A stretch of DNA of 64,000 bases, from positions 217,281-281,280 of the forward strand of contig CAXXNF010000001.1 in NCBI GenBank assembly GCA_963666365.2, written 5' to 3'. Below the pieces are notes generated by a model that was not told where the DNA came from, ran no database searches, and was given only the letters and a program-made list of their open reading frames with translations. The translations under genes were made by a program, and so were the position numbers. The stretch is from Syntrophales bacterium (lineage in GTDB: Bacteria; Desulfobacterota; Syntrophia; Syntrophales; UBA2210). Shown here in pieces: positions 30,757 through 62,783 of this stretch (within the stretch, counting starts at the first letter, position 1; the number at the start of each line of letters is the position of its first letter).

Positions 30757-31146
30757 CTACTGATCAAGCGGGCGACAATAATTATCTACTACTACTCCCC
30801 CGGGGAAAGTCACACATATGTGGTTAATAACGCGAATGTCTGGCATGCGTATTGGAGGATATCTTCGGAGGCATTCATCCATCCAGTAGTCAGGAGTGGT
30901 ATAGTTGTTTGCACAATGCCACGGTCTGCATCCAAGTCCGAATCTCCAACAGGTGGGAGTCTCAATTACTCCCAGTTCTATCGAATTCTGTGGAGCAAAC
31001 GTATTATAATTTTTATGATTATCCATTAAATCGAAAACATGCGTCTGTAATTGCCAACATCTCGCTACATTAGGACAGTCAGCACCCGCTATCGCAGGAA
31101 CGATGAGAAGTGCGAGCGCCATGCATTCAACCGCGATTCTTTTCAT
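30757..31146 (-). CDS. Secreted 8-Cys protein, paralog A (unknown family)
   Basis: Signal peptide MKRIAVECMALALLIVPAIAGA, then a mature part with 8 Cys. It shares the block IETPTCWRFGLGCRPWHCANNYTTPDYW with paralog B. AAGGAGG RBS. Confidence 0.6.
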   Translation of the reverse strand: MKRIAVECMALALLIVPAIAGADCPNVARCWQLQTHVFDLMDNHKNYNTFAPQNSIELGVIETPTCWRFGLGCRPWHCANNYTTPDYWMDECLRRYPPIRMPDIRVINHICVTFPGGVVVDNYCRPLDQ

Positions 31147-31212
31147 TATGTGCCTCCTTGTCGCATTCCCGTAATATTGTTTCCTTACCGCTTCCTCACT
31201 GCCGATGGTTAT

Positions 31213-31241
31213 AAATTACGCTCGGGTAAGCGAGTTGTCAA
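31213..31241 (-). promoter_or_regulatory. Candidate sigma-70 promoter of Cys-rich paralog A
   Basis: On the minus strand: TTGACA (31241-31236), 17 nt, TAATTT (31218-31213). The same architecture is conserved upstream of paralog B, and the spacer holds a small CTCG..CGAG dyad. Confidence 0.4.
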
Positions 31242-31318
31242 GATCCCTTTACTACGGGCTGCTGTCGGAGGTAAATGGGGGTTTTTTTGAGGAGACCTTC
31301 ATTGTCCCGTAGATAAGA

Positions 31319-31690
31319 CTACTGATTAAGCGGGCGGCAGTAATCATTGACCACTATTCCACCGGGAAAGGTCACACATATCTTGGGATCAAGGTTAAAT
31401 TGCCTGTTAAGTGCGATAGGAAACCTTCTGATACATTCGTCTATCCAGTAGTCAGGAGTGGTATAGTTGTTTGCACAATGCCATGGTCTGCATCCAAGTC
31501 CGAATCTCCAACAGGTGGGGGTCTCAATTGTTCCTATTTCGACTGATTGCTGAACAATAGTTGTCGACGGACTAAGACCAAATCCCCATTGGAGTACCCA
31601 ACATCTTGCTGTATCAGGACAGTCAGCACCCGCTATCGCAGGAACGATGAAAAGAACGAGCACCATGCATGCAACCGCGATCCATTTCAT
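31319..31690 (-). CDS. Secreted 8-Cys protein, paralog B (unknown family)
   Basis: The ATG at 31690 (MKWIAVACMVL...) aligns with the paralog A start. The longer track ORF start (MTRRHT) is really the AAGGAGG RBS read as codons. Confidence 0.6.
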   Translation of the reverse strand: MKWIAVACMVLVLFIVPAIAGADCPDTARCWVLQWGFGLSPSTTIVQQSVEIGTIETPTCWRFGLGCRPWHCANNYTTPDYWIDECIRRFPIALNRQFNLDPKICVTFPGGIVVNDYCRPLNQ

Positions 31691-31746
31691 TGTGTGCCTC
31701 CTTGTCATGCTCCCGTAGTCTTGCTTCCTTATCGCCGTCGGGTGTG

Positions 31747-31775
31747 AATTTACGCTCGGTTACGCGAGTTGTCAA
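31747..31775 (-). promoter_or_regulatory. Candidate sigma-70 promoter of Cys-rich paralog B
   Basis: On the minus strand: TTGACA (31775-31770), 17 nt, TAAATT (31752-31747). Homologous to 31213-31241. Confidence 0.4.
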
Positions 31776-31854
31776 GCCGCTTTTAATAAGAAGCCCCCTT
31801 TAATATGCATGTTCTTATGACGTAAGACATTTACCTTGGTCCGTCTCCAAGATA

Positions 31855-32253
31855 TCACCGCTCGCTGATGCACTGAAGTACGTAGATCGCTTCCGTCAAA
31901 TCAATGCGGTCGTCGGCATTCACGTCGCCCCCGATAAAAGTCAACCCCGTATCCATACTGCAGGCGAGTTTGGCCGCCACGATCGCGTCCTCAAGTCCGA
32001 TAACACTATCGGCGTTCACGTCTCCGGGTATAGATCCCTCCACAAGGCGGAGGATATTCCCCATGGCGTCGTAGGTATAGCGGATGATCTTGCCGTTGTC
32101 GTAATTGACCCCCGTGAGCCTTCCCGCCTGGTCGTAGGTATAGGTAACGGTTCCGGCCCCGGCAGCAAGGGGCGCCCCGATACACAGAATCAAAAGAACA
32201 GCCACCCAGGTTTTTCCCGACCTGCTTGCATTCCTCGCTTCACTCCTGAACAT
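31855..32253 (-). CDS. Small secreted protein with two YD repeats plus a dockerin-like double Ca-loop module
   Basis: Signal peptide, then TYTYDQAGRLTGVNYDNGKIIRYTYDAMGNILRL, GDVNADSVIGLEDAIVAAKL and GDVNADDRIDLTEAIYVLQ. The ATG at 32253 has a GAGG RBS. It lies 79 nt downstream of the RHS gene. Confidence 0.65.
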   Translation of the reverse strand: MFRSEARNASRSGKTWVAVLLILCIGAPLAAGAGTVTYTYDQAGRLTGVNYDNGKIIRYTYDAMGNILRLVEGSIPGDVNADSVIGLEDAIVAAKLACSMDTGLTFIGGDVNADDRIDLTEAIYVLQCISER

Positions 32254-32332
32254 ATGCACACCTCACAATTCCCGAGAATATAAAAATGAGTCGAACGTAG
32301 ACTTGCCCCTATCTCCCGGAAAATCCGTTTTG

Positions 32333-35300
32333 CTATTCGGGGGAAAAGCCCATCCTTTTGAGTTCTTTTTCGGCTGCGTCCACACTTTGCCTGAAGGATT
32401 CAGCCTGCTCCATGCGCTCCCGTGCACTATATATCTCTGCCTCACAGTCCTGGATGAGACCGGCGATTGAGGGAGAGTCATAGTGACCAGCTGCCTCATC
32501 TAAAATTTTATCCAGCAGTGCGTATTCCTTATGAATTATCTCTTTGTTTTTCGGCTGTTCGAGTTCACGGATTTTCGCCCTCCCCTCGGAGACCCTCTTC
32601 AACAATGCGTTGACCTTCTTCTCGATCCGGACCGCTTTTTGCTGCATTTCCCTTCTTCCCATAAAGGACAACTTCTTGATAATCTTAATGCTATGGGCAA
32701 GAAAACAACGAACCATGTGAAGATCAAAATCTTCGCAGTCTTCATACAGGTCCGCATGATCAATGCAGCTCTGGTAAACCAATGCTTCAGTCTTTGCACG
32801 TTCATACTCCCGATGCAGATCGAGGAACTCTGAGGGAGTCATCGTTGCAGTCGGCGCAAAGCCCGTTACGTCCACCGTGGAAACAGGATTGGCGTAGGCG
32901 TAGAGGTAGGGATTGAGCATATGCAGATCCGGCTCCTGGGGCCGGAGGGGTTCCGGCGACAGAAATCGACCGTTCCCTGCATCGTAGTAACGGGCACGTA
33001 TGTGGAAGAGATCTCCGCCCTCGCCTTCCTGGCGCACCCCCCACTTGCCCGCATAGGTAAAGAACTGGAGGCTTTCGCCCTGGTGCCCCAGGACCCGGCC
33101 GTAGGGAGTATAGGCGTAGGCGTCCGTCACCAGCCCGTTTTCATCCGTGAGGGCCAGTGTCGAACCGGTCAGATTGAAATGGTAGAACCTGACCGAGGGC
33201 TCCGCCGTCGCCATGCCTATGCTGTAGAGGAGCTCTCCCTCTGGACTCCATACGTAATAACGGGTCACCGTGCCGGTCGCTCCCACCTCCTCCGCCACGA
33301 CGGGATGGAGACCGATGCCGTAGTTGTAGTGGTAGCGGGTGGTGCTGTCGTCTTCGGTCCGGGTCAGGAGATCCCCCATTCCGTTGTAGGACAGGTCTGT
33401 GTCGTCCACCCTCGCAAGCAGGGATTCCGCGTTCCACTGGAAACGGTGCGAGGGCGATGAGGTGGTGTTGCCCGCATTGTCCGAGGAATGACCGGGGGAT
33501 TGCGGGCTGCAGGCGCTGTCGTATGCGTAGTGGCGTGTGCGAAAGCCCAGCGCTTCGGCAGGATCCAGGGGCACGGTCATGTCCGCGGAGACGACCTGGC
33601 CTGCATTGTCCAGGGTGTAGGCGCAATCGACGATGCTGCCTTCCTGTATGCGTACAAGTTCGCCCGCACCGTTGTAGGTGTAGGTCCCGTTGACGCCGTT
33701 TGAACGGGTGATCCCGGTGAGACGCCGGTCCCGGTCGTATGAAAGGGTCATCCACGTGCCGGTCAGGGTATCACCCAGGCCGGTGAGCAGTCCCGTGTCC
33801 CCGTCATAGGAATAATCCACATTGAAGTCGTTCCCGTAGGATGCCGTTACCAGCCGCCCTGCCCCGTCATAGACGGCGCCGAAAGTCTTTCCCCCTGTGG
33901 AGGTGGTTTCAACCAGTCCTTCGGCATCCCTTGTCAAAATGAGACCTTCGGTGGAGGTGAGACGGCCGAGTTCGTCGTATTCATAGGTGAAAACGGTCCC
34001 GTCTGAGCAGGTCTTCCCGGTGACGTTTCCTGCGGCATCCCTGATGAGAGACACGCTACGCCCGTCGGATCCGGTCTCGGAGGAGACCCTTCCCTGATTG
34101 TCGTATTCATAGGTTATTTTATACCCGGAAGGAGTGGCGGCCGATTCCATGCGGCCGGATTCGGAACGGGTAAAAGGCCAGGAATTGCCCCTTCTGTCCG
34201 TAATACCGGTGAGCGCACCCATGGCATCGTACTGAAGGGTCATGGTACCGGTTTCCGGAAGGGTGATCGACGAGAGGTTGCCGCCGGGTCCATATGCAAG
34301 ACCGCCGGTCCTGCCCAGGCCGTCGGTGACCGAGATGATCCTGTTCATGGCATCCCACTCAAAATAAATGCTGCGGCCGCAGGCATCGGTCATCCGGGTC
34401 ACCTGCCCCAAAGCGTCCGTCACGTATCCGGTGGTATACCCCAGGGGTGTGGTGCGGGAACTCACCACGCCTTCCGCGTCGTAGGCGGTCTGCCACGTGT
34501 CTCCGCCCCGGGTCATACCGACCAGACGGCCAAGGGAATCGTAATGAAAAACGCTTGCCACACTCGCAGGGTCGGTCATGGAGGAAATCCGCCCCATGGT
34601 ATCGTAACCGGTTGTGGTTACCGCCCCGGTCCTGTCGGTGGCGCTTACCGTCCTGTCCATATCGTCAAAAACCAGGGATGCGGCATTTCCCGTGGGATCG
34701 GTAATCGAGGTCAGGTTTCCGTTCGTATCGTAGGTGAATTGATAGGTGCTGCCGGTGGGATGGGTGATTCCGGTTATACGGTCGTTCCCGTCGTAGTCCA
34801 TGGTGGTGGTGGAAGTTCCCGCCACGGTAATACCGGTTCGCCTGCGCATGGCATCGTAGGTGAATGCGGCGGTCACGCCGTCGGGATCGGTTGCGGATGC
34901 GGCGGTCCCGTCGGTATTGTAGGTATAGGTAGTAGTGCCTCCCACAGGATTGGTGCTCGAGGTCATGCGGCCCTGTTCGTCGTAAACAAATGTCCATGTC
35001 TCGCCGGAGGGGTCCGTCATGGAGGTAATATTCCCTCTTTCATCGTAGGCCAGGCCAAGGGATGTCCCGTCAGGGTAATCTTCCTTTGTCGGGTCGTGAA
35101 ACGTGAAGTTCACTGACTCTTCGTCTTCCGGGTGGCTGAATGTCTGCTCCTGTGAGGTATAGGTATAAGAAATCCTGTTTCCGAGTGCATTGGTCACCGA
35201 AGTCGTAAAACCGGTGTCGGGGTCCGACGTCAAGGTCGCCACCCCGCCGAGCCGGTCGGTGACGCCTGTGATTTCGTCCCGGACGGAGTCGGATGAAAAT

Positions 35301-37645
35301 TGCGCCGTATTGCCGGCAGGATCGGTCAAGGATTTTGCCACCCGGCCCTGGTGATCGTGCCGGTATGTGTAGGAAGTGCCGTCGGGCCTGGTCTCGGTCA
35401 GGGAGCTTTCCTCACTTATATAAGGCACAAACTCCTCCCCTTCCGAATCCTGAAGGGAAAGTGTCGTCACGTTTTCATCGGCATCCTGCTGAGTCGCCGC
35501 TACGCCGCCGCCCTCCCGATAGGTCTGCCTGTAGGGGGTGTTTCCCTCGGGATAGGTCACGCCGGTAATGGCGCCGTAACCGGCATAGGCAAAAGTGGTT
35601 GATGCGGCCATGGGATCAATTACGGACCGCAGGACCAGTTCCTGAGGGTTGTCCGTTGGATTTTCCTCGTAGGCAAGGTCGAAGGTACGGCCCTGGTCGT
35701 CGGTAACCGACACCAGATACTTGTTCGTATCCTGCGTTCCGACCTGGGCGTAGGCAAAGGAGAGGGATCGGCCCAGGCCGTCTTCCACCGATTCGGGCAT
35801 GTGGGAGAAATCCCCTTCACCGTAGCGGTACGTGAGGACGTTGCCGTTGCGGTCCTCGATGCGGACCAGACGTGCCCGGGAGGCCTGGGTCACCGCCGCC
35901 AGATAGACGTCTTCCTGTGATTCGTTGACCACACCGTCGACCAATGTCGTTGCCCCGGTGTAAAAAACTACGAAACCTCCATCCGCTGAGATGGAGGACC
36001 GAAAACAGCCATCATCCGCCTCGACGCCTGCGCTGCTGACGCTCGCCCGCGTGGTGGCGCTTCCCTCCATGTCCCGAACGAACACGTCGTAGGACCAGTT
36101 CATGTCGTCCGCTACGAGATTTGAAGCCCAGGACTCGAAAGCCACAAAGCGGCCGTCCGCCGAAATGGACGGATAACGCGAGCTGTTGTCGGATGCGGCG
36201 CCTTCCATACCCACGCTTACCAGAACGGTGGCTGTTTCTTGACTGTCGTACAGGAAGACATCCGAACGCCCGTTTGTATCACCTGCAACGAGATTGGTAG
36301 CAGACGAGTAAAAGGTCACGTACCGGCCGTCAGCGGACAGGGATGGCCATTCCGAACTGCTGTCGCCTTCCGTTCCCTCCGAGTCTACGCTCACCCGTGT
36401 GGTCGTACCCGTCTCCCGATCATGGACGAAAACGTCCCTGGCACTGTTGGCATCGTCCGAAACCAGGGTGCTCGCTTCTGAGGTAAAGGCCACATAGCGG
36501 CCGTCTGCCGAAATCGCGGTGTAAAAAGAATTGCCATTACCCTGGGTCCCGTCCGAATGGATACTTACCAGCGTGGTTTCTCCGGTCTGCCTGTCATGGA
36601 TAAAAACATCCTTCATCTCGTTTACATCGTTCTCTACCAGATTTGAGGCAGAGGAGGCAAAGGCCACATAGCGGCCGTCTGCCGATATGGCAGCATAGGA
36701 GGAATGACCGTTTCCCTGCGTTCCGTCGGAGGACACGCTCACAAGACAGGTCTCGCCCTGTTCCCGATCGCAAACGAATATATCCTCATACCCGTTCACG
36801 TCGCCTTCAACCAGATCGGATGCGTAGGATTCAAAGACTACATACCGGCCGTCCGGGGTAATGGCGGGATTACGCGAAATATTGTTTCCCGACGTCCCTA
36901 CAGGCGTCACGCTGACCAGAGAGACCTGTCCCGATGCTCTGTCGCGTACAAAAACGTCCATTTTCCCATTGGTGTCGGGGGTCACAAGGTTGGAAGCCAC
37001 CGATCCAAAGGCCACGACACGTCCTCCTTCGGAAACGCATGCGACGGTTGACCAATTATCCGCCTCCGCTCCTTCGGAGGTCTCGCTTATACGCTCTGAG
37101 ATCGCCATGGACCAGGGAATCGCCTCTTTCTTATAGGAGTATACCAGCTCTTCTTCGGGCTGGAGAAGATAGAAAAACCCGTCCGTTTCCTTAAGACTGC
37201 ACCGCACACCCTCGAGGGAAAAGGGCTCCCAGGCAGCGCCGTTTTTGCGGAACCCGTATTCCTTTCCCGCGCCGATGTCCGCATAGACCTCTTCCGGCGT
37301 TGTATCGGCATAGCGCGTCACACCGCCCGTGTGGGTCCCGGCGAATACCGATGGCAGGCCGTCGGAAAAACGCTTGGCATCCATTTGTGAACCGTAGAAA
37401 AGAGAAAAGGAAACCGGCAACGGCCCGCCCAGATCGAAGGGATTCATGGTGAAGAAATACTCGCCTGTGGCGGCATTAATCGGATCGCCCACTTTCAACA
37501 CCGTCGTTTCTGTTTTGGAGATCCCTATCTTCGAATATTCTGTCGGTTCCTCGCCATTGGCAGCACAGGTGACACCCAGAAGCAGCACGACAACAAGCAA
37601 GAGTATCATCCCCCGCATACCGAGTGGGTTCATCTCATTTCGCAT
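32333..37645 (-). CDS. Sec-signal RHS/YD-repeat protein: DUF6531-like N-terminus, 7-repeat PD40/TolB-like beta-propeller, YD shell, RHS core and a 174-aa helical C-terminal domain
   Basis: The signal peptide is followed by GDPINAATGEYFFTMNPFDLGGPLPVSFSLFY. Seven repeats of about 58 aa follow the pattern SADGRYVAF.S.ASNLV..D.N...DVFV.D. Dozens of YxYDxxGR(L/M) repeats come next. The core end reads ARYYDAGNGRFLSPEP...NPYLYAYANPVSTVDVTGF. GGGAGG RBS. Confidence 0.9.
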   Translation of the reverse strand: MRNEMNPLGMRGMILLLVVVLLLGVTCAANGEEPTEYSKIGISKTETTVLKVGDPINAATGEYFFTMNPFDLGGPLPVSFSLFYGSQMDAKRFSDGLPSVFAGTHTGGVTRYADTTPEEVYADIGAGKEYGFRKNGAAWEPFSLEGVRCSLKETDGFFYLLQPEEELVYSYKKEAIPWSMAISERISETSEGAEADNWSTVACVSEGGRVVAFGSVASNLVTPDTNGKMDVFVRDRASGQVSLVSVTPVGTSGNNISRNPAITPDGRYVVFESYASDLVEGDVNGYEDIFVCDREQGETCLVSVSSDGTQGNGHSSYAAISADGRYVAFASSASNLVENDVNEMKDVFIHDRQTGETTLVSIHSDGTQGNGNSFYTAISADGRYVAFTSEASTLVSDDANSARDVFVHDRETGTTTRVSVDSEGTEGDSSSEWPSLSADGRYVTFYSSATNLVAGDTNGRSDVFLYDSQETATVLVSVGMEGAASDNSSRYPSISADGRFVAFESWASNLVADDMNWSYDVFVRDMEGSATTRASVSSAGVEADDGCFRSSISADGGFVVFYTGATTLVDGVVNESQEDVYLAAVTQASRARLVRIEDRNGNVLTYRYGEGDFSHMPESVEDGLGRSLSFAYAQVGTQDTNKYLVSVTDDQGRTFDLAYEENPTDNPQELVLRSVIDPMAASTTFAYAGYGAITGVTYPEGNTPYRQTYREGGGVAATQQDADENVTTLSLQDSEGEEFVPYISEESSLTETRPDGTSYTYRHDHQGRVAKSLTDPAGNTAQFSSDSVRDEITGVTDRLGGVATLTSDPDTGFTTSVTNALGNRISYTYTSQEQTFSHPEDEESVNFTFHDPTKEDYPDGTSLGLAYDERGNITSMTDPSGETWTFVYDEQGRMTSSTNPVGGTTTYTYNTDGTAASATDPDGVTAAFTYDAMRRRTGITVAGTSTTTMDYDGNDRITGITHPTGSTYQFTYDTNGNLTSITDPTGNAASLVFDDMDRTVSATDRTGAVTTTGYDTMGRISSMTDPASVASVFHYDSLGRLVGMTRGGDTWQTAYDAEGVVSSRTTPLGYTTGYVTDALGQVTRMTDACGRSIYFEWDAMNRIISVTDGLGRTGGLAYGPGGNLSSITLPETGTMTLQYDAMGALTGITDRRGNSWPFTRSESGRMESAATPSGYKITYEYDNQGRVSSETGSDGRSVSLIRDAAGNVTGKTCSDGTVFTYEYDELGRLTSTEGLILTRDAEGLVETTSTGGKTFGAVYDGAGRLVTASYGNDFNVDYSYDGDTGLLTGLGDTLTGTWMTLSYDRDRRLTGITRSNGVNGTYTYNGAGELVRIQEGSIVDCAYTLDNAGQVVSADMTVPLDPAEALGFRTRHYAYDSACSPQSPGHSSDNAGNTTSSPSHRFQWNAESLLARVDDTDLSYNGMGDLLTRTEDDSTTRYHYNYGIGLHPVVAEEVGATGTVTRYYVWSPEGELLYSIGMATAEPSVRFYHFNLTGSTLALTDENGLVTDAYAYTPYGRVLGHQGESLQFFTYAGKWGVRQEGEGGDLFHIRARYYDAGNGRFLSPEPLRPQEPDLHMLNPYLYAYANPVSTVDVTGFAPTATMTPSEFLDLHREYERAKTEALVYQSCIDHADLYEDCEDFDLHMVRCFLAHSIKIIKKLSFMGRREMQQKAVRIEKKVNALLKRVSEGRAKIRELEQPKNKEIIHKEYALLDKILDEAAGHYDSPSIAGLIQDCEAEIYSARERMEQAESFRQSVDAAEKELKRMGFSPE

Positions 37646-50000: not shown

Positions 50001-50104
50001 TCGCGGGGAAGCGCGACATAGGCGTAGAGACCGGCAATGAGAATAACTGCCAGAAGCGCCAGGACCGTTGCCTGCCGTGTGAGCGCAGCCCGATTGACGA
50101 TCAT
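47018..50104 (-). CDS. RND (AcrB/HAE1-type) efflux transporter permease
   Basis: 1028 aa with a 12-TM plus two large periplasmic loops layout. Typical N-terminus RAALTRQATVLALLAVILIAGLYAY...FPDITIP. Confidence 0.9.
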   Translation of the reverse strand: MIVNRAALTRQATVLALLAVILIAGLYAYVALPRESFPDITIPYIFVTTTYEGVAPEDMEKLITMPIERKLKGLADVEEIRSTSAEGISTVAIEFLPKVDIDDALQKVRDKVDLAKSDLPAELPDDPVIQEFNLSDYPVIRVVLSGPFSLRRLKTFADEFEDRIEAVPGVLEARLTGGLEREIHVEFDLDRVAAYNVPFSTLIAAVERGNVNMPSGSMDIGPIKYLVRVPEDYKTPAEIFSLVAFVRDGKPVYLRDLAVISDSYKDPLTRSRINGEQSVTLAVLKRSGENIVTVTDEVKKVVDELRPLLPPALKIDLTSDMSKDVNLMVADLENNILSGLILVLAVIFIFIGGRSALFVALAIPYSMLMTFLMLTAGGITLNMVVLFSLILALGMLVDNGIVIVENIYRHMQEGESRVEAAQNGTDEVAWPVITSTLTTLGAFVPMLFWPGIMGEFMGFLPLTLIFALSSSLFVALVINPVLSARYQSVKGGVFGKEDEDHLPLVKRIYLRILEWSLGHRCAVMTMAFVLLIGSIGSFSLFGRGVEFFPETEPRRAYVFLKAPEGTNLDASDRLVRQVEAIAAEYEDLQYVIANVGSVGGDPFSQGGTGTHINRVAIDFKDFHDRSRPSSEIIKELRERILAVITGAEVQVEKEEEGPPTGAPVNMEITGDDILVLGDLAHRIRNRISDVPGLVDLKDNFVKGKPEIVVRVDREKAALVGLDTFTIAYTVKAAINGVKAGVFRLGKDEYDIIARLPERDRRSVESVKRITVSGPQGEPIPLTSVASVSLGSGVGAVNRLNQKRIVTISGDVSGRLANDVIADIKERLADFDWPRGYMLNFTGEQQEQEKASTFLKKAFVAALFIIFLILITQFNSFATPLIILTSVLLSLIGVFIGLLVTGTAFGIIMTGVGVISLAGVVVNNTIVLIDYYNKLRDRGLELTEAVIQAGLVRFRPVMLTAVTTILGLLPMATGISFDFSKMEWNIGGESSQWWGPMAVAVIFGLAFATLLTLNVVPVLISIVNGRKRS

Positions 50105-54500: not shown

Positions 54501-56442
54501 CTTCGGCTACATCACCATGTTGAGACCGCCCCTGTGGAACGACAGTTTCTACGAATACGACAGGGACAACAATCTGATCAAAGCCACCGATCCGTTGAGA
54601 AGAGCCACCTACAACGGCTACGACAAGAACGGACGGCTTTATATGACAAGAGACGCCCGGAATAACACCGTATACCGCTACTACGACAAGGAAGGAAACC
54701 TGGTCCGGCTCAGAGACCAGCGTGCCAACGAAACCCGGTTCGATTATGACTCGAACGACCGGTTGACGGACACTACCGACCCGCTGGCACGAACCATCAC
54801 CTACACCCGTGACGCTCTGGGCCGCATTGCGGAACAGACAAACAAACGGGGGCAGAAGGTGGCGTTCTCCTACGACGGAGAAGGCCGCATGACATCAAAA
54901 CGATATGACGGCACGGAGGAAGCGGCATACACCTACGATGCCGCCGGTAACCTTACCCAAATGATCGATGACTGGGGAACCACCACATATGACTACGATG
55001 AGCGAAACCGGGTAACCGCAATCACCTATCCGGACACTATGACCCTTTCTTTTACCTACGACGAACTGGGCAACTGCAGTTCCCTCACCTACCCCGACGG
55101 CCAGACGGTACGCTACACCTACGACGATGTGAACCGGATCACGATACCGCGGGGCCTGAGAAACGGCGCCAATATCGAAATACGGCCGAACAGGGAAAAG
55201 CCGAACCGGATCACCGCCATGAACTGGGGGGAGACTCACTCCGTCACAGGCGACTATGACCCCGCCGCCCGTTTGATCACACAGACCCGCTCAAACGGCG
55301 CCGTGACCGAGTTTTCCTACGACGCCAACGACCGGGTAACGGGGATCAATCACAAAAAAGGGGACACCCCCCTTCTCGAACTGAATTATACCTATGACGA
55401 CGCGGACAACCTGCTTTCCGAACTTTCCTCAGATCCCGTCACACCGGCCGTGAGCGATGCCTCCCTGGCAGCGACTGTCGACGCCGCCAACCAAATCAGC
55501 CGGCTGGGAAGCGACACGTACACCTTCGACAGCGACGGCAATCGAATCGGAGTAAGCAGTGGTCAATTCGCCGCCGTCTACGACCCGGAAAACCATGCCA
55601 CGCAGATCACCCGCAACGGGGTCGCCGCCGCCTGCACCTACGACGGACAGGGCATGATGGTGCAGCGCACAGTGGACGGCGAGACCACCACCTACCACTA
55701 CGACGATGCGGGACGCCTCCTTTTTGAAACGGATAGTTCGGGCGCCGTGAGCAACACCTATATATACATGGGCAGAAAACCGGTTGCCATGGGAACAAAG
55801 GACAGCGGATACAGGTTCTTTCATTTCAACAACCTCGGAAACACGCTCGCCCTGACCGACGCGACCGGTTCGGTCATCAAACGGTACGCCTACCAGCCTT
55901 ACGGGGCCGCGACCGGCAGTGGGTCAGAGATTTCGAACCTCTTCACCTTTGTGGGCGCTCACGGCGTCATGGATCTGGGCGACGGCCTGTTTCTGATGAA
56001 ACGCAGGCTCTACGACGCCCGGAGCGGCAGGTTCCTGCAGACCGACCCCATCGGCATCGCCGGCGGGATCAATCTTTACACCTATGCCGAGAACAATCCC
56101 CTGCGCTACATCGATCCCGAAGGCACCTCAATCCTCCTTGCTTACGCGGCAGGTGCAGCTATAGTCGCTCTCGCAGTGGTCATTTTGACACCAGCCGACG
56201 ACACAAAAGATGCCGACCAGACGACAGATGCCGGCTTTCACGAACATGCCGAGCAGGCAGCTGAAAATAGGGTGAAGGGTGCACAAAAAGTGAAAGAAGC
56301 CAAAGGTACGGGAAACAAGTTCAGAGCCTTTACGGACGCGTACTATGAATCCAAAGAAGATACTCGTAAATTGGCTCCAAAGGCGGGTGAGGAGGCAGTA
56401 GAGAAAGTCGGAAAGGGGTACTTACGGGTACTAAGGCGTTAG
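51514..56442 (+). CDS. Sec-signal RHS/YD-repeat protein with an N-terminal PQQ/BamB-like beta-propeller and a short TM-containing C-terminal tip (copy 1)
   Basis: ATG at 51514 with an AGGAG RBS, and signal peptide MNRPLSIVLSCLILVICVLAAPSAPLFA. PQQ-like repeats include GGIYCFNTADGEQLWYKK and LYGVDAQTGKEYWRMD. The DUF6531-like block is YQVNTATLNLVLQGTLFWMKTRGPSVAAALVYN. About 40 YD repeats follow. The core end is RLYDARSGRFLQTDPIGIAGGINLYTYAENNPLRYIDPEGT. Confidence 0.9.
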   Translation: MNRPLSIVLSCLILVICVLAAPSAPLFAEPGSLLWRSPLSSGGPCTWSTPVVTGSRCYVQDQEGGIYCFNTADGEQLWYKKLSGGWPTASPVYKNGKLFVFAGSGIDFDVVDTVYRLDPLSCGAVETQFTPAPGVAISAMSPAVSDTMVYVPTSSTLYAIDAGTFEKAWEMSVPGASVIIGGEILYVLADKLYGVDAQTGKEYWRMDPPHSTGFDMGALSGDILVAYTKYSGSPDYVSKLHAFRLSPENMGASLLATSVDPPSLLWSFTPTDHAYSDWSPPAIDASISRVYAVNRAGYLWAFDLEGDGTLLWNRPVRGSGMASAKPVALDGKVYIQAAGTSGEYGTPHWLVCYDVNELEKFLEYDDPNDPDTFWQSESLVDLWNANATPEDIERRAQWEADGFTIGEMKTAWGSPAVVNGKVYIATDHGGGVLAFEGEPSEHSWYMISQNPHLTGSVDGSQKDFYNSPSTLGLSVDNATTAFGFSDQPPMRIGLPDYQVNTATLNLVLQGTLFWMKTRGPSVAAALVYNADHTLHSGLFGHGWRFAYESTATIGCSSHAIDIRKGSGQVLTFTSTEDLTADPDTLDYPLELTPPTGNFDRVTVYEGYCEWFEKSSRFTYRYDKSTLEGSQIYYLTSITDRNGNRIDVEVDRTNGHITSVTGPADRQLTMTYDADSRCTQIATPAFDSRSLAFEYDEEGFLTAVTDMAGYRSTYEYDDDGYMTRMTRDSHWATFEYASRGSGLGKYVTKVTDSDVGWTLYELLKQDPVEVRRTSRQGKARIFKSNDGLTGSVTDPLGNVSTIGYENKLPVSFKDRNGHIERLVYDNRGNVTTQIDALNRWTRFSYNSDDTLHSMTNPLSETWYYAYDSHQNLTRVTSPEGNITQISYDSYGQVNKITDPNGHVTDYYYDIWGNLKTVEDPLGNVTRFGYDGSHLHCIYITDARDNEKQILYDDNDRLSRVYYGPDYEGPSVRNEFDAFWQIRATDENGNQTRVERNRFGYITMLRPPLWNDSFYEYDRDNNLIKATDPLRRATYNGYDKNGRLYMTRDARNNTVYRYYDKEGNLVRLRDQRANETRFDYDSNDRLTDTTDPLARTITYTRDALGRIAEQTNKRGQKVAFSYDGEGRMTSKRYDGTEEAAYTYDAAGNLTQMIDDWGTTTYDYDERNRVTAITYPDTMTLSFTYDELGNCSSLTYPDGQTVRYTYDDVNRITIPRGLRNGANIEIRPNREKPNRITAMNWGETHSVTGDYDPAARLITQTRSNGAVTEFSYDANDRVTGINHKKGDTPLLELNYTYDDADNLLSELSSDPVTPAVSDASLAATVDAANQISRLGSDTYTFDSDGNRIGVSSGQFAAVYDPENHATQITRNGVAAACTYDGQGMMVQRTVDGETTTYHYDDAGRLLFETDSSGAVSNTYIYMGRKPVAMGTKDSGYRFFHFNNLGNTLALTDATGSVIKRYAYQPYGAATGSGSEISNLFTFVGAHGVMDLGDGLFLMKRRLYDARSGRFLQTDPIGIAGGINLYTYAENNPLRYIDPEGTSILLAYAAGAAIVALAVVILTPADDTKDADQTTDAGFHEHAEQAAENRVKGAQKVKEAKGTGNKFRAFTDAYYESKEDTRKLAPKAGEEAVEKVGKGYLRVLRR
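54789..56099 (+). repeat. 1311-bp tract apparently 100% identical to 60451-61761
   Basis: Same sense translation, and identical antisense track ORFs (54895-55239 = 60557-60901; 55429-55824 = 61091-61486). Spot checks of several lines are identical at a constant offset of 5662. Confidence 0.8.
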
Positions 56443-56523
56443 TAAAGGATGTCATAGCGGGAGCATCAGCTGTGACAGGGGTCTCGGGATTACACCTAAT
56501 CCGTAAAGCTCCGGAAAAATAAT

Positions 56524-56548: not shown

Positions 56549-56576
56549 CATGCTTCATCACACAGGGAGTGATATT

Positions 56577-56960
56577 ATGAAGAGACGCATCCACTCAGTT
56601 TTACTCATAGCGGCCATGTGTTTCATCTGCACTGCCGCAGCGGCTGCCACCTACACCTATGACGAGCTGAACCGTCTCACGAAAGTCGTCTACGGCTCCG
56701 GCAGCGACGGGACCTTGTCGTACATCGAATACACCTACGATACGGCCGGCAACATCACCCTCATCAGTTCCCTCGGGAATATATTATATGGCGATGTCGA
56801 CAACAACCGGACAGTCGATCTGGCCGATGCCATCATGTCGCTTCGGATCGTAACCGGCCAGAGCGTCTCTCCTCCCAACGTCCGGAAAGCGGCGATCAAC
56901 AACGACCAACGGATCGGCCCTGAAGAGACGATATACATTATGAAGAAAATATCCGAGTGA
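56577..56960 (+). CDS. Small secreted protein with two YD repeats plus a dockerin-like module (copy 1 of the tandem pair)
   Basis: The ATG at 56577 has an AGGGAG RBS. MKRRIHSVLLIAAMCFICTAAAAA is followed by TYTYDELNRLTKVVYGSGSDGTLSYIEYTYDTAGNITLI, GDVDNNRTVDLADAIMSLRIVTG and INNDQRIGPEETIYIMKKISE. Confidence 0.65.
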   Translation: MKRRIHSVLLIAAMCFICTAAAAATYTYDELNRLTKVVYGSGSDGTLSYIEYTYDTAGNITLISSLGNILYGDVDNNRTVDLADAIMSLRIVTGQSVSPPNVRKAAINNDQRIGPEETIYIMKKISE

Positions 56961-57253: not shown

Positions 57254-60200
57254 ATGAACAGGCCTTTCGCTGTAATTCTCTCTTGTGTGACTCTTGTAAT
57301 TTGTGTACTTGCAGCAACCTCTGCCCCTCTCCTGGCCGAACCCGGCACGCTGCTCTGGAGATCGCCCCTGTCGAGCGGTGAACCAAGCACCTGGTCCACT
57401 CCAGTGGTGATAGGCGACAGGTGCTATGTGCAGGATCAGGCTGGCGGCATCTACGGTTTTCGAACAACCGACGGGGAGCAGCTCTGGTATAAAAAGGTTT
57501 CCGGAGGCTGGCCGGTTTCGTCGCCCGTCTACAGAAACGGCAAATTGTTCATGATGGCCAGCAGCAACAATGAAATTGACAGCAAGGATCCTTATGTTGT
57601 CGATACTGTCTACCGGCTCCACCCCGACTGCGGGCGTATTGAAAAGCAGTTTACCCCTGAGGTCGGCGTCTCCATCAATGCAATGTCTCCGGCCGTATCC
57701 GATTCCCTGGTGTACATACCCACCTTTTCAAAACTCTACGCCATCGATGTCAATACCTTCGAACCGGTCTGGGAGATGGCCGTCACCGGGGCAAGCGTCA
57801 TCATCGGCGGCGACATCCTCTATGTGCTTGCCGATAAACTCTATGGCGTGAATGCCGAAACCGGAGAAGAATACTGGCACATGGATGCCCCCCACAGTAC
57901 CGGATTCGACATGGGGGCGCTCTCCGGGGATATTCTGGTGGCCTTTACAAAGTATTGTTGGACGGACTATTTCTCAACGCTGCATGCCTTCAGGCTGCAT
58001 CCCGAAAATATGGAGATTCCCCCTCCCACAGAGACTCCGCCCTACCGGATCGACCCTCCGGAAGTTATCTGGTCTTATGCCTATCGCACCGGGCTTCTGG
58101 AGACCGCAGGGTCGTCCGACTTCTCTCCCCCCGCAATCGACAGCAGCACGGCAACCGTGTATGGGATTAACAGATCCGGGGTTCTGAAAGCATTCGCCCT
58201 CGAAGGCAATGGAGAACCGCTCTTCATGATGGGTGTCAGGGATAATGGCCTGGCTTCGGCCAAGCCGGTGGCCCTTGACGGAAAGATTTACATACAGGTA
58301 GGATCCGGCACCTCCTATTATCTTCGCTGTTTTGATGCACGTAATCTCCCTGGCGTCCCTCCCGTACTATGGGCGTCAGAATCGCTGGGGAGTGGCGGCG
58401 AGATGCAGGTTGCCTGGGGATCACCTGCTGTAGTGGATGGCAGAATTTATATCGCCACCGACCATGGCGGCGGCCTGCTGTGTTTTGAAAGCGATCCTTC
58501 GGAACACAGCTGGTACATGCTCACCCAGAACCCCAATCTGACAGGGTCTGCGGGCGGCTGGAAAAAGGATTTCGGCAATTACCCTGCCACCCTCGGTCTG
58601 GCCACAGACAACGAAAATACCGCCTTCGGCTTCAGCGATGAGCCGCCCATGAGAATCGGGCTGCCCGATTACCAGGTGAACACGGCTACGCTCAACCTTG
58701 TATTGCAGGGAACCCTGTTCTGGATGAAAACCCGCGGCCCTTCAGTTGCCGCCGCCCTGGTGTACAACGCCGACCACACCGCACCATCGGGCCCTTTCGG
58801 TAACGGCTGGCGATTTGCCTATGAATCCACCGTGGAAATCGACTGCAGCGGTAAAAACGCGGAATTACGAAAAGGCTCCGGCCAGGTCATTACTTTTTCA
58901 TCCAGGAAAGATCTTTTATCTGATACGCTTTCCTACCCCCAGAATCTGTCGCCCCCCACAGGCAATTTCGACGGTTTTATCGCCTATAACGGCTACTATG
59001 AATGGTTCGAGAAATCCTCCCGCTTTACTTACCGGTACGATTTTTCAACCATTCACGGACCGGCGCTTGCCTACCTGACCGCCATTACCGATCAGAACGG
59101 CAACCGTGTGACGCTGGATGTGGACCTCGCCACTGGAAAGATCAGCAGGATCACCGGGCCGGCAGAGCGCCAATTGACGCTGACCTATGACGATAACAGC
59201 CGCTGCATTCAGATCACAACCCCCGCCTTTGATTCCCGGACGATACGATTCGAATATGACGAAGAGGGGTTTCTCACGGCAATCAACGACATGGCCGGTT
59301 ACCGAAGCATCTACGAATACGATGACGACGGCTACATGACCAAGATGACCCGGGACAGCCACTGGGCATCCTTCGAATACGCATCCCGGGGATCGGGCCT
59401 TGGGAAATACGTGACGAAGGTCACGGACAGCGATGTCGGGTGGACCCTCTATGAACTTTTGAAGCAGGACCCGGTGGAGGTACGGCGCACCAGCCGGCAG
59501 GGCAAAGCGAGAGTTTTTAAAAGCAACGACGGCCTGACCGGGTCGGTGACAGACCCCCTGGGCAACGTCAGCACCATCGGCTACGAGAACAAGCTGCCCG
59601 TCAGTTTCAAAGACAGAAACGGGCACATAGAGCGGATGGTATACGACAACCGGGGAAATATCATCACACAGATAGACGCCCTGAACCGTTGGACCCGGTT
59701 TTCGTACAACAGCGATGACACGCTTCACTCCATGACCAACCCGCTTTCCGAAACCTGGTACTACGCATACGATTCGCATCAGAACCTGATACGAGTCACC
59801 TCGCCCGAAGGCAACATCACACAGATCAGCTACGACGAATACGGTCAGGTCAACACAATCATCGACCCCAACGGCCATGTCACCAATTATTATTACGACA
59901 GCTACGGCAATCTGAAAACCGTGGAAGATCCCCTGGGCAATGTCACCCGGTTCGGCTATGACGGATCCAAGCTCCACTGCATATTTATCACCGATGCACG
60001 GGGGAACGAAAAACAGATACTCTACGACGACAACGACCGCCTGAGCCGCGTCTATTATGGGCCGGACTACGAAGGACCCAGCGTACGCAACGAGTTTGAC
60101 GCCTTCTGGCAAATCAGGGCGACCGACGAAAACGGCAACCGGACACGGGTCGAGCGGAACCGCTTCGGCTACATCACCAGGCTGAGTCCGCCCCTGTCGA

Positions 60201-62095
60201 ACGACAGTTTCTACGAATACGACAGGGACAACAATCTGGTCAAGACCACCGATCCGTTGAAAAGAACCACCTACAACGGCTACGATAAGAACGGACGGCT
60301 TTATATGACAAGAGACGCCGGGGGACACACCGTATACCGCTATTACGACAAGGAAGGCAACCTGGTCCGACTCAAAGACCAGCGTGAAAACGAAACCCTC
60401 TTCGATTACGACTCGAACGACCGGTTGACGGAAAACACCGACCCGCTGGAACGAACCATCACCTACACCCGTGACGCTCTGGGCCGCATTGCGGAACAGA
60501 CAAACAAACGGGGGCAGAAGGTGGCGTTCTCCTACGACGGAGAAGGCCGCATGACATCAAAACGATATGACGGCACGGAGGAAGCGGCATACACCTACGA
60601 TGCCGCCGGTAACCTTACCCAAATGATCGATGACTGGGGAACCACCACATATGACTACGATGAGCGAAACCGGGTAACCGCAATCACCTATCCGGACACT
60701 ATGACCCTTTCTTTTACCTACGACGAACTGGGCAACTGCAGTTCCCTCACCTACCCCGACGGCCAGACGGTACGCTACACCTACGACGATGTGAACCGGA
60801 TCACGATACCGCGGGGCCTGAGAAACGGCGCCAATATCGAAATACGGCCGAACAGGGAAAAGCCGAACCGGATCACCGCCATGAACTGGGGGGAGACTCA
60901 CTCCGTCACAGGCGACTATGACCCCGCCGCCCGTTTGATCACACAGACCCGCTCAAACGGCGCCGTGACCGAGTTTTCCTACGACGCCAACGACCGGGTA
61001 ACGGGGATCAATCACAAAAAAGGGGACACCCCCCTTCTCGAACTGAATTATACCTATGACGACGCGGACAACCTGCTTTCCGAACTTTCCTCAGATCCCG
61101 TCACACCGGCCGTGAGCGATGCCTCCCTGGCAGCGACTGTCGACGCCGCCAACCAAATCAGCCGGCTGGGAAGCGACACGTACACCTTCGACAGCGACGG
61201 CAATCGAATCGGAGTAAGCAGTGGTCAATTCGCCGCCGTCTACGACCCGGAAAACCATGCCACGCAGATCACCCGCAACGGGGTCGCCGCCGCCTGCACC
61301 TACGACGGACAGGGCATGATGGTGCAGCGCACAGTGGACGGCGAGACCACCACCTACCACTACGACGATGCGGGACGCCTCCTTTTTGAAACGGATAGTT
61401 CGGGCGCCGTGAGCAACACCTATATATACATGGGCAGAAAACCGGTTGCCATGGGAACAAAGGACAGCGGATACAGGTTCTTTCATTTCAACAACCTCGG
61501 AAACACGCTCGCCCTGACCGACGCGACCGGTTCGGTCATCAAACGGTACGCCTACCAGCCTTACGGGGCCGCGACCGGCAGTGGGTCAGAGATTTCGAAC
61601 CTCTTCACCTTTGTGGGCGCTCACGGCGTCATGGATCTGGGCGACGGCCTGTTTCTGATGAAACGCAGGCTCTACGACGCCCGGAGCGGCAGGTTCCTGC
61701 AGACCGACCCCATCGGCATCGCCGGCGGGATCAATCTTTACACCTATGCCGAGAACAATCCGATAAAAAATATCGACCCAGAAGGCACCTCAATCCTCCT
61801 TGCTTACGCGGCAGGTGCAGCTATAGTCGCTCTCGCAGCGGTCATTTTGACACCAGCCGACGACACAAAAGATGCCGGCGATACGTCATTTTTGGATGAT
61901 GCCAGCCAGACATTTGAGAAAAATCAGCGGAATGAACAAAAAGTGAGAGAAGCCGCAAATACGGGAGACCGGTACCGTGTCGTGGCGGAAAGTTTACATG
62001 AGCAAAAAGAAGATATTCGCAGATTGGCTCCAAAGGCGGGTGAGGAGGCAGTAGAGAAAGTCGTAAAGGGAACATTTCGGGCACTAAGGCAGTAA
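57254..62095 (+). CDS. Sec-signal RHS/YD-repeat protein with an N-terminal PQQ/BamB-like beta-propeller and a short TM-containing C-terminal tip (copy 2)
   Basis: Paralog of 51514-56442. The N-terminal about 470 aa are diverged, the middle is near-identical and the last 1.3 kb of the shell is identical. The core end is ...NNPIKNIDPEGT, followed by a different tip. Confidence 0.9.
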   Translation: MNRPFAVILSCVTLVICVLAATSAPLLAEPGTLLWRSPLSSGEPSTWSTPVVIGDRCYVQDQAGGIYGFRTTDGEQLWYKKVSGGWPVSSPVYRNGKLFMMASSNNEIDSKDPYVVDTVYRLHPDCGRIEKQFTPEVGVSINAMSPAVSDSLVYIPTFSKLYAIDVNTFEPVWEMAVTGASVIIGGDILYVLADKLYGVNAETGEEYWHMDAPHSTGFDMGALSGDILVAFTKYCWTDYFSTLHAFRLHPENMEIPPPTETPPYRIDPPEVIWSYAYRTGLLETAGSSDFSPPAIDSSTATVYGINRSGVLKAFALEGNGEPLFMMGVRDNGLASAKPVALDGKIYIQVGSGTSYYLRCFDARNLPGVPPVLWASESLGSGGEMQVAWGSPAVVDGRIYIATDHGGGLLCFESDPSEHSWYMLTQNPNLTGSAGGWKKDFGNYPATLGLATDNENTAFGFSDEPPMRIGLPDYQVNTATLNLVLQGTLFWMKTRGPSVAAALVYNADHTAPSGPFGNGWRFAYESTVEIDCSGKNAELRKGSGQVITFSSRKDLLSDTLSYPQNLSPPTGNFDGFIAYNGYYEWFEKSSRFTYRYDFSTIHGPALAYLTAITDQNGNRVTLDVDLATGKISRITGPAERQLTLTYDDNSRCIQITTPAFDSRTIRFEYDEEGFLTAINDMAGYRSIYEYDDDGYMTKMTRDSHWASFEYASRGSGLGKYVTKVTDSDVGWTLYELLKQDPVEVRRTSRQGKARVFKSNDGLTGSVTDPLGNVSTIGYENKLPVSFKDRNGHIERMVYDNRGNIITQIDALNRWTRFSYNSDDTLHSMTNPLSETWYYAYDSHQNLIRVTSPEGNITQISYDEYGQVNTIIDPNGHVTNYYYDSYGNLKTVEDPLGNVTRFGYDGSKLHCIFITDARGNEKQILYDDNDRLSRVYYGPDYEGPSVRNEFDAFWQIRATDENGNRTRVERNRFGYITRLSPPLSNDSFYEYDRDNNLVKTTDPLKRTTYNGYDKNGRLYMTRDAGGHTVYRYYDKEGNLVRLKDQRENETLFDYDSNDRLTENTDPLERTITYTRDALGRIAEQTNKRGQKVAFSYDGEGRMTSKRYDGTEEAAYTYDAAGNLTQMIDDWGTTTYDYDERNRVTAITYPDTMTLSFTYDELGNCSSLTYPDGQTVRYTYDDVNRITIPRGLRNGANIEIRPNREKPNRITAMNWGETHSVTGDYDPAARLITQTRSNGAVTEFSYDANDRVTGINHKKGDTPLLELNYTYDDADNLLSELSSDPVTPAVSDASLAATVDAANQISRLGSDTYTFDSDGNRIGVSSGQFAAVYDPENHATQITRNGVAAACTYDGQGMMVQRTVDGETTTYHYDDAGRLLFETDSSGAVSNTYIYMGRKPVAMGTKDSGYRFFHFNNLGNTLALTDATGSVIKRYAYQPYGAATGSGSEISNLFTFVGAHGVMDLGDGLFLMKRRLYDARSGRFLQTDPIGIAGGINLYTYAENNPIKNIDPEGTSILLAYAAGAAIVALAAVILTPADDTKDAGDTSFLDDASQTFEKNQRNEQKVREAANTGDRYRVVAESLHEQKEDIRRLAPKAGEEAVEKVVKGTFRALRQ
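60451..61761 (+). repeat. 1311-bp tract apparently 100% identical to 54789-56099
   Basis: See 54789-56099. Confidence 0.8.
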
Positions 62096-62216
62096 AGGGT
62101 GTCATATCGGAAACTTAAGCTGCGACAGGGGCCCCGGGACTAAACCTAATCCGGGAAGCTCTGGGAGAATAATGCATCGCATTGCAAACATGCTTCATTA
62201 CACACGGGGAAATATT

Positions 62217-62600
62217 ATGAATAGACGAATCCAATTAGTTCTACTTATAGTGGCCATGTGTTTTACCTGCACTGCCGCAGCGGCAGCAACCTATACCTAC
62301 GATAAGCTGAACCGGTTGACTAAGGTCGTCTACGGCTCCGGCAGCGACGGGACCTTGTCGTACATCGAATACACCTACGACGCGGCCGGAAACATCACCC
62401 TCATCAGTTCCCTCGGGAACGTATTGTATGGCGATGTCGACAACAACCGGAAAGTCGATCTGGCCGATGCAATTATGTCTTTCCAGATCGTAACCGGCCA
62501 GAGCATCTCTCCCCCGGAAGTACGGAAAGCGGCGATCAACGATGACCGGCAGATAGGCCCGGAAGAGGCGATCTACATTCTGCGCAAAATATCTGAGTGA
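62217..62600 (+). CDS. Small secreted protein with two YD repeats plus a dockerin-like module (copy 2)
   Basis: The ATG at 62217 begins MNRRIQLVLLIVAMCFTCTAAAAA. It is followed by TYTYDKLNRLTKVVYGSGSDGTLSYIEYTYDAAGNITLI, GDVDNNRKVDLADAIMSFQIVTG and INDDRQIGPEEAIYILRKISE. Confidence 0.65.
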   Translation: MNRRIQLVLLIVAMCFTCTAAAAATYTYDKLNRLTKVVYGSGSDGTLSYIEYTYDAAGNITLISSLGNVLYGDVDNNRKVDLADAIMSFQIVTGQSISPPEVRKAAINDDRQIGPEEAIYILRKISE

Positions 62601-62783
62601 TCTTCTTCTCTACCATCCTTCAAAAATTAATTACTCCGGCTCACCATTTTTTTATTATATTTTTAGTATTACTATTTCTTTTCTCCTATGTTTTGCTACT
62701 AAAGTGGTGTAGAAGAACAGGTGCGCAACGCCTTGAAATTATCTATGACAGTCGGAAAAAGAAATACTAAAACAGGAGGAAAC

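Follow-up and report, generated by a model that had tools for sequence, protein, structure and literature searches.

Three large genes encoding secreted RHS (YD-repeat) proteins lie in a 64,000-nucleotide stretch of the genome of a Syntrophales bacterium (assembly GCA_963666365.2, contig CAXXNF010000001.1, positions 217,281 to 281,280 of the forward strand), and each of them is followed, in the same orientation, by a small gene whose secreted product combines YD repeats with a dockerin-like, calcium-binding segment. We call this whole stretch the window and number its positions from its first letter. The gene rhs1 (32333-37645, minus strand) encodes 1770 amino acids (aa) and is paired with small1 (31855-32259, minus strand; 134 aa); rhs2 (51514-56442, plus strand; 1642 aa) is paired with small2 (56577-56960, plus strand; 127 aa), and rhs3 (57254-62095, plus strand; 1613 aa), a tandem paralogue of rhs2, with small3 (62217-62600, plus strand; 127 aa). 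The unit is a two-gene module, present in three copies in the window. All open reading frames (ORFs) in question were found at the coordinates used here, and exact database entries match rhs1 (1770 aa), rhs2 (1642 aa) and a giant protein of 3007 aa described below. An earlier note, made from the letters of this DNA, had described three RHS genes with Sec leaders and N-terminal propellers in place of trafficking domains, each followed by a secreted YD and dockerin-like protein of about 130 aa (127-134 aa). Both descriptions hold, the first on Pfam and NCBIfam matches together with leaders judged by eye from the translations.

Judged by their matches to Pfam, NCBIfam and Protein Data Bank (PDB) sequences, rhs1, rhs2 and rhs3 are genuine RHS cocoon genes. 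All three products start with an n-h-c leader. The rhs1 protein then carries the N-terminal part of DUF6531, a PD40-type beta-propeller, the YD shell, the Rhs core and a helical tip of 175 aa (32336-32860); the rhs2 protein runs through a PQQ_2/BamB-like propeller, DUF6531, the shell and the core to a tip of 105 aa (56125-56439), and rhs3 ends in a divergent tip of 102 aa (61787-62092). RHS_repeat matched the three proteins in 10-12 stretches, with 230.7, 231.8 and 232.2 bits for rhs1, rhs2 and rhs3, respectively, and TIGR01643 scored 178-195 bits. The Rhs_assc_core model TIGR03696 (cutoff 32.5 bits) reached 50.2 bits in rhs1, 65.5 in rhs2 and 65.7 in rhs3, and the propellers were matched by PD40 (58.1 bits, rhs1) and PQQ_2 (74.5 bits in rhs2, 54.6 in rhs3). 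DUF6531 scored 28.8 bits in rhs1 and 26.0 bits in rhs3, and in rhs2 it stayed under its gathering score of 24.1 (19.3 bits). Repeat mapping placed 17-22 YD units in each of the three proteins, and over the RHS proteins considered the full-length shells have 16-25 units, in addition to the plug and the core. The core cleavage motifs (PxxxxDPxG type), at which cleavage is predicted, read NPLRYIDPEG|T in rhs2, NPIKNIDPEG|T in rhs3 and, as a variant, NPVSTVDVTG|F in rhs1. Neither Pfam nor NCBIfam reported a PAAR, VgrG, TcdB/SpvB, LXG or TPS domain in the three proteins, and Pfam reported no NHL propeller or TIP domain in them.

Searches against the PDB returned as best matches the RhsP, RhsA, Tse5 and Tse15 cocoons, a bacterial teneurin-like protein and the TcB/TcC core region. 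By sequence, the closest solved shells were those of type VI secretion system (T6SS) Rhs effectors (E=1e-36 to 1e-44); the similarity to TcB/TcC was restricted to the Rhs core (residues 1432-1544), and that to the teneurin-like structures 9ifo and 9pt5 to the shell and core. The DNA of the rhs1 N-terminal region also holds three direct repeats of 104 nt each, with a spacing of 174 nt (58 codons; 36306-36757, minus strand), which fit PD40 propeller blades still recognisable at the DNA level.

The three small proteins share one architecture, with a leader, RHS_repeat matches of 31-38 bits and then two DxDxxxxxD/E loop-plus-helix segments. In small1 (RHS_repeat 38 bits, TIGR01643 31.9 bits) there are two YD repeats and two canonical calcium loops, DVNADSVIGLED and DVNADDRIDLTE. 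This protein is 34% identical to small2 and small3 and 41% identical to its counterpart at locus L007, and it has a near-identical orthologue (P0034); small2 is identical to P0001, and small3 is 85% identical to small2.

The co-occurrence of the two genes in other genomes, which the earlier note had proposed as a check, proved to be conserved. All informative loci outside the window (10 of 10) had an RHS gene directly preceding the small gene in the same orientation. The upstream gene encodes a PQQ_2-RHS protein at L001 (a relative ~92% identical in DNA), at L002-L005 (one locus spread over several contigs; 1643 aa) and at L006 (1659 aa), an LRR_5-DUF6531-RHS protein at L074 and at L077, both with Bacteroidota-type neighbours, and a DUF6531-PD40-RHS protein like that of rhs1 at L079. 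At the other loci it encodes an RHS protein of 1125 aa (L007, in a Desulfatirhabdiaceae metagenome-assembled genome), 1448 aa (L073, in Desulfatibacillum AK-01, where the start of the partner, Dalk_4503, overlaps the RHS stop), 1538 aa (L075/L076, with two 74-aa genes before the partner) or 1529 aa (L078). A near-identical strain of the rhs2/rhs3 lineage (L080) shows the pairing and was left out of the ten, as was L072, whose contig was too short to judge it. When genome contigs were scanned with a YD motif, most of the matches listed fell inside large RHS genes, and the L007 partner was the only full-length one among them.

Leaders were visible on the RHS proteins of L001, L002, L006, L073, L074 and L075, which are those that were read. 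The RHS protein of L024 has a leader too, but the small gene beside it encodes a different tail and is not a YD-dockerin gene. Read from these proteins, the module is a signal-peptide RHS protein plus a signal-peptide YD-dockerin protein, and the RHS head is interchangeable, being a PQQ propeller, a PD40 propeller, LRR_5 or none. The module is more general than the earlier note saw, since it recurs in Desulfobacterota-type and in Bacteroidota-like contexts.

Is the C-terminal half of the small proteins a dockerin? Among the best 150 matches of a profile search over 1.84 billion representatives there were at least 17 full-length clusters of the partner family (118-139 aa), and a word-seeded profile search gave 279 matches at E<1e-10, mostly of 112-151 aa and with precomputed PF00404 and PF05593. 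The family pattern consists of a leader, TYTYDxLNRL...YTYDAAGN, and the two loops GDxNGDGxVDLxDAI...L and ADVNGDGKIGxxEAIYILQ; the existing labels of its members are only "hypothetical" or "YD repeat-containing protein". Dockerin_1 was matched at E<0.01 in 14 of 24 partner homologues (best 6.9e-10), the L007 partner scored 26.7 bits, above the gathering score, and the family profile matched whole solved dockerins in the PDB, down to E=3e-6. For small2, AlphaFold run on 67 sequences gave a model with a predicted local distance difference test score (pLDDT) of 79.3, in which four strands are followed by two helices; this model was used in place of one built on 9 sequences, which was unusable (pLDDT 54). 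In Foldseek, the C-terminal half of this model was placed on chains of the CaDoc0917 dockerin with a target-normalised template modelling (TM) score of 0.79-0.82 and a root mean square deviation of 1.8-2.2 A over 58-61 residues, and its N-terminal half superposed on the YD strands that form the shells of RHS, Tc and teneurin proteins. From the window copies alone, a dockerin can be called only weakly; for the family, as a prediction from sequence and model, the call is solid because Pfam, the PDB profile search and AlphaFold with Foldseek agree. The dockerin-like modules of the earlier note, which had asked for such support, therefore stand at the level of family and structure.

The possibility that the small gene is an orphan rhs fragment or a pseudogene was also considered and rejected. 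It encodes a leader of its own, purifying selection acts on it, and it is conserved in both the Desulfobacterota-type and the Bacteroidota-like contexts; its YD unit, which is consensus-like, is 30-45% identical to many repeats of the cognate RHS protein, with no preferred position.

A wider class of small secreted proteins was seen in many phyla, in which a leader and one YD_2x unit are joined to another C-terminal tail (L011-L014, L018, L021, L024, L027, L029, L031, L034-L036, L041, L044, L045, L048, L049, L058, L064). In some of them the tail is Ig-like, in others it is a poly-Pro linker or perhaps a sorting tail, and in others hardly any tail is present; by a crude motif count several of these genes adjoin RHS-like ORFs. 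There may be a general "YD mini-adaptor" theme, with the YD-dockerin family as one of its branches.

We next consider how the two genes of the module have diverged. Between rhs2 and rhs3 the propellers are 54-78% identical, with a synonymous divergence (dS) of ~1.5 and an omega of 0.15, and on these values they are old, constrained alleles. The shells are 90-100% identical, and their codons 1101-1460 are the same in all 1080 nt, a sign of recent gene conversion. The tips are only ~54% identical, with an omega of ~1.9. Moreover, the L001 RHS gene joins an rhs2-like body with an rhs3-like tip, so the tips appear to be exchanged as cassettes. Both rhs2 and rhs3 thus present what is expected of a polymorphic toxin, a hypervariable and recombining C-terminal cassette on a conserved body. 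Directly after DPEG|T the tips of rhs2 and rhs3 open with a transmembrane-like helix (Kyte-Doolittle maxima over 19 residues of 2.75 and 2.62), and the L001 and L006 tips are similarly hydrophobic. Because this helix begins at the cleavage site itself, the payload of rhs2 and rhs3 is probably a membrane-inserting peptide. The tip of the T6SS effector Tse5, a membrane-inserting, pore-forming toxin, is comparable to these hydrophobic tips.

The gene downstream of the RHS gene is the conserved YD-dockerin gene and not a variable immunity gene, extra small genes being present only in L075 and possibly in L002. In L075 (9499-9997) the two 74-aa genes between the RHS gene and the partner, one with DUF3791 and the other without a family, are candidate immunity or antitoxin genes, the sole clear case among the loci examined. 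Could the small protein itself be the cognate immunity protein, a periplasmic antidote to the RHS tip? Its gene has the position of one, directly after the putative toxin gene, and export would bring its product into the compartment in which a membrane-active tip is expected to work; at L001, too, the rhs3-type tip travels with a small3-type partner. However, one homologous architecture stands beside the unrelated tips of rhs1, rhs2, L002, L006, L007, L073, L074 and L075, and the partner is under purifying selection (omega 0.18 between small2 and small3), in contrast to the tip. In addition, the L075 partner comes only after two other small genes, and YD repeats plus a dockerin do not make an immunity-type fold. 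On the strength of the unrelated tips, the contrast in omega and the gene order of L075 we rejected this reading as highly improbable.

Adjoining rhs1 is the gene for a giant adhesin-like secreted protein (37833-46856, minus strand; 3007 aa), in which Pfam recognised Beta_helix/NosD, Ig-like/DUF11 and Flg_new_2 modules and four stretches of Lcl_C, which we take to be the DUF1566 named in the earlier note. Its dockerin-like end (~37836-38020), also reported there, is present; it scored 21.4 bits with Dockerin_1, just under the gathering score of 22.9, and is 45% identical to an L007 dockerin that passes that score. The giant protein had no homologue among PDB sequences and was a singleton cluster in a database look-up. 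On the other side of the rhs1-small1 pair lie two secreted paralogues of 129 aa, as the earlier note had seen (30757-31146, minus strand, identical to P0008; and 31319-31708, minus strand, lineage-specific), which are 64% identical, with 8 Cys each after the leader and an omega of 0.5. They matched no Pfam or NCBIfam family and had no homologue outside this genome. A conserved 42-nt element precedes each of them (31213-31254 and 31747-31788, minus strand); upstream of the 31319-31708 copy a promoter scan matched TTGACA-17-TAAATT, and a hairpin overlaps the element of the downstream copy. Because each gene has its own promoter-like element, this suggests that the two 8-Cys genes are transcribed separately from rhs1-small1.

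These genes belong to a block of ~20.5 kb (26488-47027), in which small1, rhs1, the giant gene and the two 8-Cys genes are accompanied by an AdhE-like gene and a truncated sigma-54 activator. The block is absent from L001, where the AMP-binding gene abuts a resistance-nodulation-division (RND) pump; in L080 the giant gene is retained at least at its 5' end, so there the block is at least partly present. No tRNA, integrase or flanking repeats were found at the boundaries of this island. Beyond it lies the RND pump (47018-51159, minus strand; ACR_tran of 1028 aa and a membrane-fusion protein of 352 aa), which, judged by synteny and precomputed Pfam in L001 and L080 and by DNA collinearity, is conserved backbone that lies between the RHS blocks and does not belong to the system. 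The rhs3-small3 pair is a tandem duplication missing in both of the ~92%-identical relatives, L001 and L080, each of which carries a single copy in place of the two tandem genes rhs2 and rhs3. The earlier note had treated all of this as a single gene neighbourhood, with the giant adhesin and the 8-Cys proteins as parts of the system, and neither claim survived: giant gene, rhs1, small1 and 8-Cys genes sit in a strain-variable insertion, and rhs2 and rhs3 are a tandem duplication beyond the conserved pump.

It is accordingly very unlikely that a single surface-assembled machine is made up of the giant adhesin, the three RHS proteins, the three YD-dockerin proteins and the 8-Cys paralogues. The dockerins at the ends of the giant protein and of the partners are indeed related, leaders are present on all these proteins, and L007 repeats the order of a dockerin-tipped large protein (899 aa, Laminin_G_3/Flg_new_2/Dockerin), RHS and partner; but such a large protein is missing from the other 9 of the 10 loci, the 8-Cys genes are orphans with promoter-like elements of their own, the conserved pump stands between the two blocks, and L001 does without the island that bears the rhs1 block. 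From its distribution, the giant protein is probably associated with rhs1 as a neighbour and is not a conserved component.

Among the scanned proteins of the window, neither Pfam nor NCBIfam found T6SS, PAAR, VgrG, TcA or contact-dependent inhibition (CDI) genes, in keeping with the earlier observation that no delivery machinery could be recognised in these 64 kb. Positions 1-24,483 are occupied by housekeeping genes for transporters, formate dehydrogenase, acyl-CoA metabolism and similar functions. At 12915-15608 (minus strand), what were called as two ORFs (353 and 527 aa) make up a single formate-dehydrogenase-alpha-like gene of 897 codons. Just one TGA lies in its frame, at codon 354, and the surrounding sequence HCART*HAPTVAGL is a classic selenocysteine site.

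How do these genes compare with known systems? A catalogue published in 2012 (Zhang et al., PMC3482391, Table 1) includes RHS polymorphic toxins of the Sec/type II secretion system (T2SS) class, some of which have beta-propeller repeats. As described there, they resemble the window genes in having a signal peptide instead of PAAR, VgrG or LXG, RHS repeats, propellers, a core with a polymorphic cassette, and no secretion genes nearby. Unlike the window, no conserved accessory protein is described for them within the first 300,000 of the 357,715 characters of that text, where the words "dockerin" and "cohesin" occur zero times (PMC3482391). The experimentally studied WapA of Bacillus and Streptococcus is wall-anchored and belongs to monoderms, whereas the window module occurs in diderm-type genomes and has neither a wall-binding domain nor a clear immunity gene.

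The bacterial teneurin-like proteins (TLPs), described in 2026 (Raoelijaona et al., PMC13018210; PDB 9ifo, 9pt5), are Sec-exported, combine a YD shell with a propeller and occur in Thermodesulfobacteriota; their delivery mechanism "remains to be elucidated" (PMC13018210). Like the window proteins they are Sec-targeted and predicted to be surface-exposed, with a shell, a plug, a propeller and a short (~15 kDa) polymorphic tip inside the shell. The 92-aa C-terminal domain of BiTLP has a predicted transmembrane segment and permeabilises membranes (PMC13018210), which resembles what is predicted for the hydrophobic tips of rhs2 and rhs3. TLPs, however, follow the order FN-plug, NHL propeller, YD shell and usually TIP, whereas the window proteins have PD40 or PQQ_2; in rhs2 and rhs3 the propeller precedes the plug, and rhs1 does have plug then propeller, but the propeller is PD40. 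Because no NHL or TIP match was reported and the domain order differs, rhs1, rhs2 and rhs3 are, on domain grounds, not TLPs in the strict sense. Downstream in TLP operons there are diverse immunity genes, in contrast to the conserved YD-dockerin gene of the window.

With TcB-TcC (PDB 4igl, 4o9x, 6h6e) the window proteins share the YD cocoon, a tip released by autoproteolysis (in the window, as predicted from the motif) and a shell-associated propeller, and the joining of sheets by TcB and TcC, two separately encoded YD proteins, is a precedent for a YD piece supplied in trans. On the other hand, no TcA, SpvB or TcdB_mid domain was reported in the window, its shells are not split, the propeller is N-terminal and not, as in Tc, a gate inserted in the shell, and the trans piece has only four strands and a dockerin. 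T6SS Rhs effectors (RhsA, RhsP, Tse5, Tse15; PDB 7q97, 8h8a, 8cp6, 8uxt) have the same plug, shell and core, but the window has no PAAR, VgrG, prePAAR transmembrane helices, EagR chaperone or T6SS genes, and a Sec leader instead. RHS repeats have already been tied to cohesin-dockerin assembly in the ScaO/ScaP scaffoldins of Acetivibrio cellulolyticus and Clostridium alkalicellulosi, secreted proteins in which cohesin, type I dockerin and Rhs stand in one chain (PMC6780208, PMC3413522). Those are Gram-positive cellulosome producers with many cohesins, whereas in the window the dockerin is on a separate mini-protein and there is no sign of a cellulosome. For PT-TG toxins, a 2026 survey names both cohesin and dockerin as trafficking domains, and our literature search found no paper with both "YD repeat" and "dockerin".

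The earlier note did not recognise the arrangement as a described delivery mode. This was overstated for Sec-exported RHS proteins with propellers, a category already known from the catalogued toxins (as far as the part of PMC3482391 cited above goes) and from TLPs (PMC13018210); it stands for the separate, conserved YD-dockerin partner, which is the new element here and appears undescribed.

Taken together, the reading we favour, with a probability of roughly 0.45, is that of a Sec-exported RHS cocoon served by a dedicated YD-dockerin adaptor. What has been observed is the domain make-up of both proteins, the strict synteny of their genes, polymorphic tips and a partner under purifying selection; we infer that the cocoon crosses the outer membrane, that the partner binds it, that a cohesin receptor exists and that the tip is toxic. 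The RHS protein begins with a leader and a variable binding domain, which in the window is a propeller of PQQ/BamB-like or PD40 type and in the relatives beside Bacteroidota-like genes is LRR_5. The further parts are the DUF6531 plug, the YD shell, the Rhs-core aspartyl autoprotease and a short polymorphic tip of ~100-175 aa, which is presumably cleaved and kept within the shell. The partner, of ~100 residues when mature, consists of one YD_2x unit of four beta-strands fused to the predicted calcium-binding dockerin. Its YD hairpins may pair by beta-sheet with the cognate cocoon, much as the sheets of TcB and TcC do, and its dockerin could hook the cocoon to a cohesin-type or other receptor on the envelope or matrix of the producer. 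Tethered in this way, the cocoon would display its encapsulated payload for contact-dependent action, with the variable head, propeller or LRR, binding the target and the tip serving as payload.

Several observations weigh against the adaptor reading. With Dockerin_1, the three window partners gave 9.2 bits, 14.8 bits or no match, against the gathering score of 22.9, and in small2 and small3 the second calcium loop begins with Ala (position 1). No cohesin (PF00963) was found in the scanned window proteins or in the precomputed Pfam of related loci, and the RHS shells contain no cohesin-sized non-YD insertion, only gaps of ~73-112 aa. None of the 10 tips, that of rhs1 included, matched a Pfam family or a known toxin family, and an obvious immunity gene was absent at most loci examined, so that toxicity is a deduction, as is the binding of partner and RHS protein. 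Finally, a cocoon of ~180 kDa would have to pass the outer membrane of a diderm.

Some of these points suit other explanations better. The small protein might be an assembly factor or a trans-subunit of the cocoon, either a periplasmic folding nucleator or a piece of shell as in TcB-TcC, with the dockerin as nothing but a calcium-triggered module for folding or stability and without tethering to a cohesin. The strict operonic linkage, with translational coupling in L073, would follow from such a role, as would the superposition of a consensus-like YD unit on shell strands and the absence of cohesins from the proteins scanned; for many non-cellulosomal dockerins, moreover, no cohesin partner is known. 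We nevertheless consider it rather unlikely. Solved RHS cocoons are self-contained single chains, the shells here are already full length, and in distant members of the family the dockerin is better conserved and closer to the canonical form than the YD half, which suggests a role in binding.

Alternatively, the modules may not be toxins but teneurin-like devices for adhesion or cell-cell recognition, in which the head binds a ligand, the cocoon is structural and the tips are anchors or signalling peptides; the transmembrane-like helix of rhs2 and rhs3, for instance, could be a stop-transfer anchor released by autoproteolysis. The tips without a known toxin domain (10 of 10) and the loci without a clear immunity gene would then be expected, the heads differ between the paralogues with the high propeller dS given above, an adhesin-like giant protein adjoins rhs1, and a role in communication is left open in the work on TLPs (PMC13018210). 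Against this, the swapping of tip cassettes together with their omega is a hallmark of conflict systems, the Rhs-core autoprotease motif is intact, L075 carries two small cytoplasmic genes where an immunity gene would be expected, and the similar short hydrophobic tip of BiTLP is toxic (PMC13018210), so that we regard an adhesion device as unlikely.

A more specific form of the adaptor reading, possible but held only tentatively, is that the partner is a handle in trans that would grip or complete the cocoon and plug it into a cohesin-type surface scaffold, for a cellulosome-like display and delivery of toxins in diderm anaerobes. This would supply an accessory component missing for Sec-exported RHS and teneurin-like toxins. 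How such cocoon toxins are delivered is an acknowledged open question (PMC13018210), for which the partner is a candidate anchoring or delivery adaptor. As a conserved, linked accessory gene it is a cheap and concrete handle on the problem, its YD half pointing to the cocoon and its dockerin half to a scaffold. Even if the adaptor model fails, the family is an unannotated marker of a distinct subclass of RHS loci. If the model is true, cohesin-dockerin assembly would reach beyond the degradation of polysaccharides by monoderms and take in the display of toxins by diderm anaerobes, and polymorphic toxins would gain a new trafficking class.

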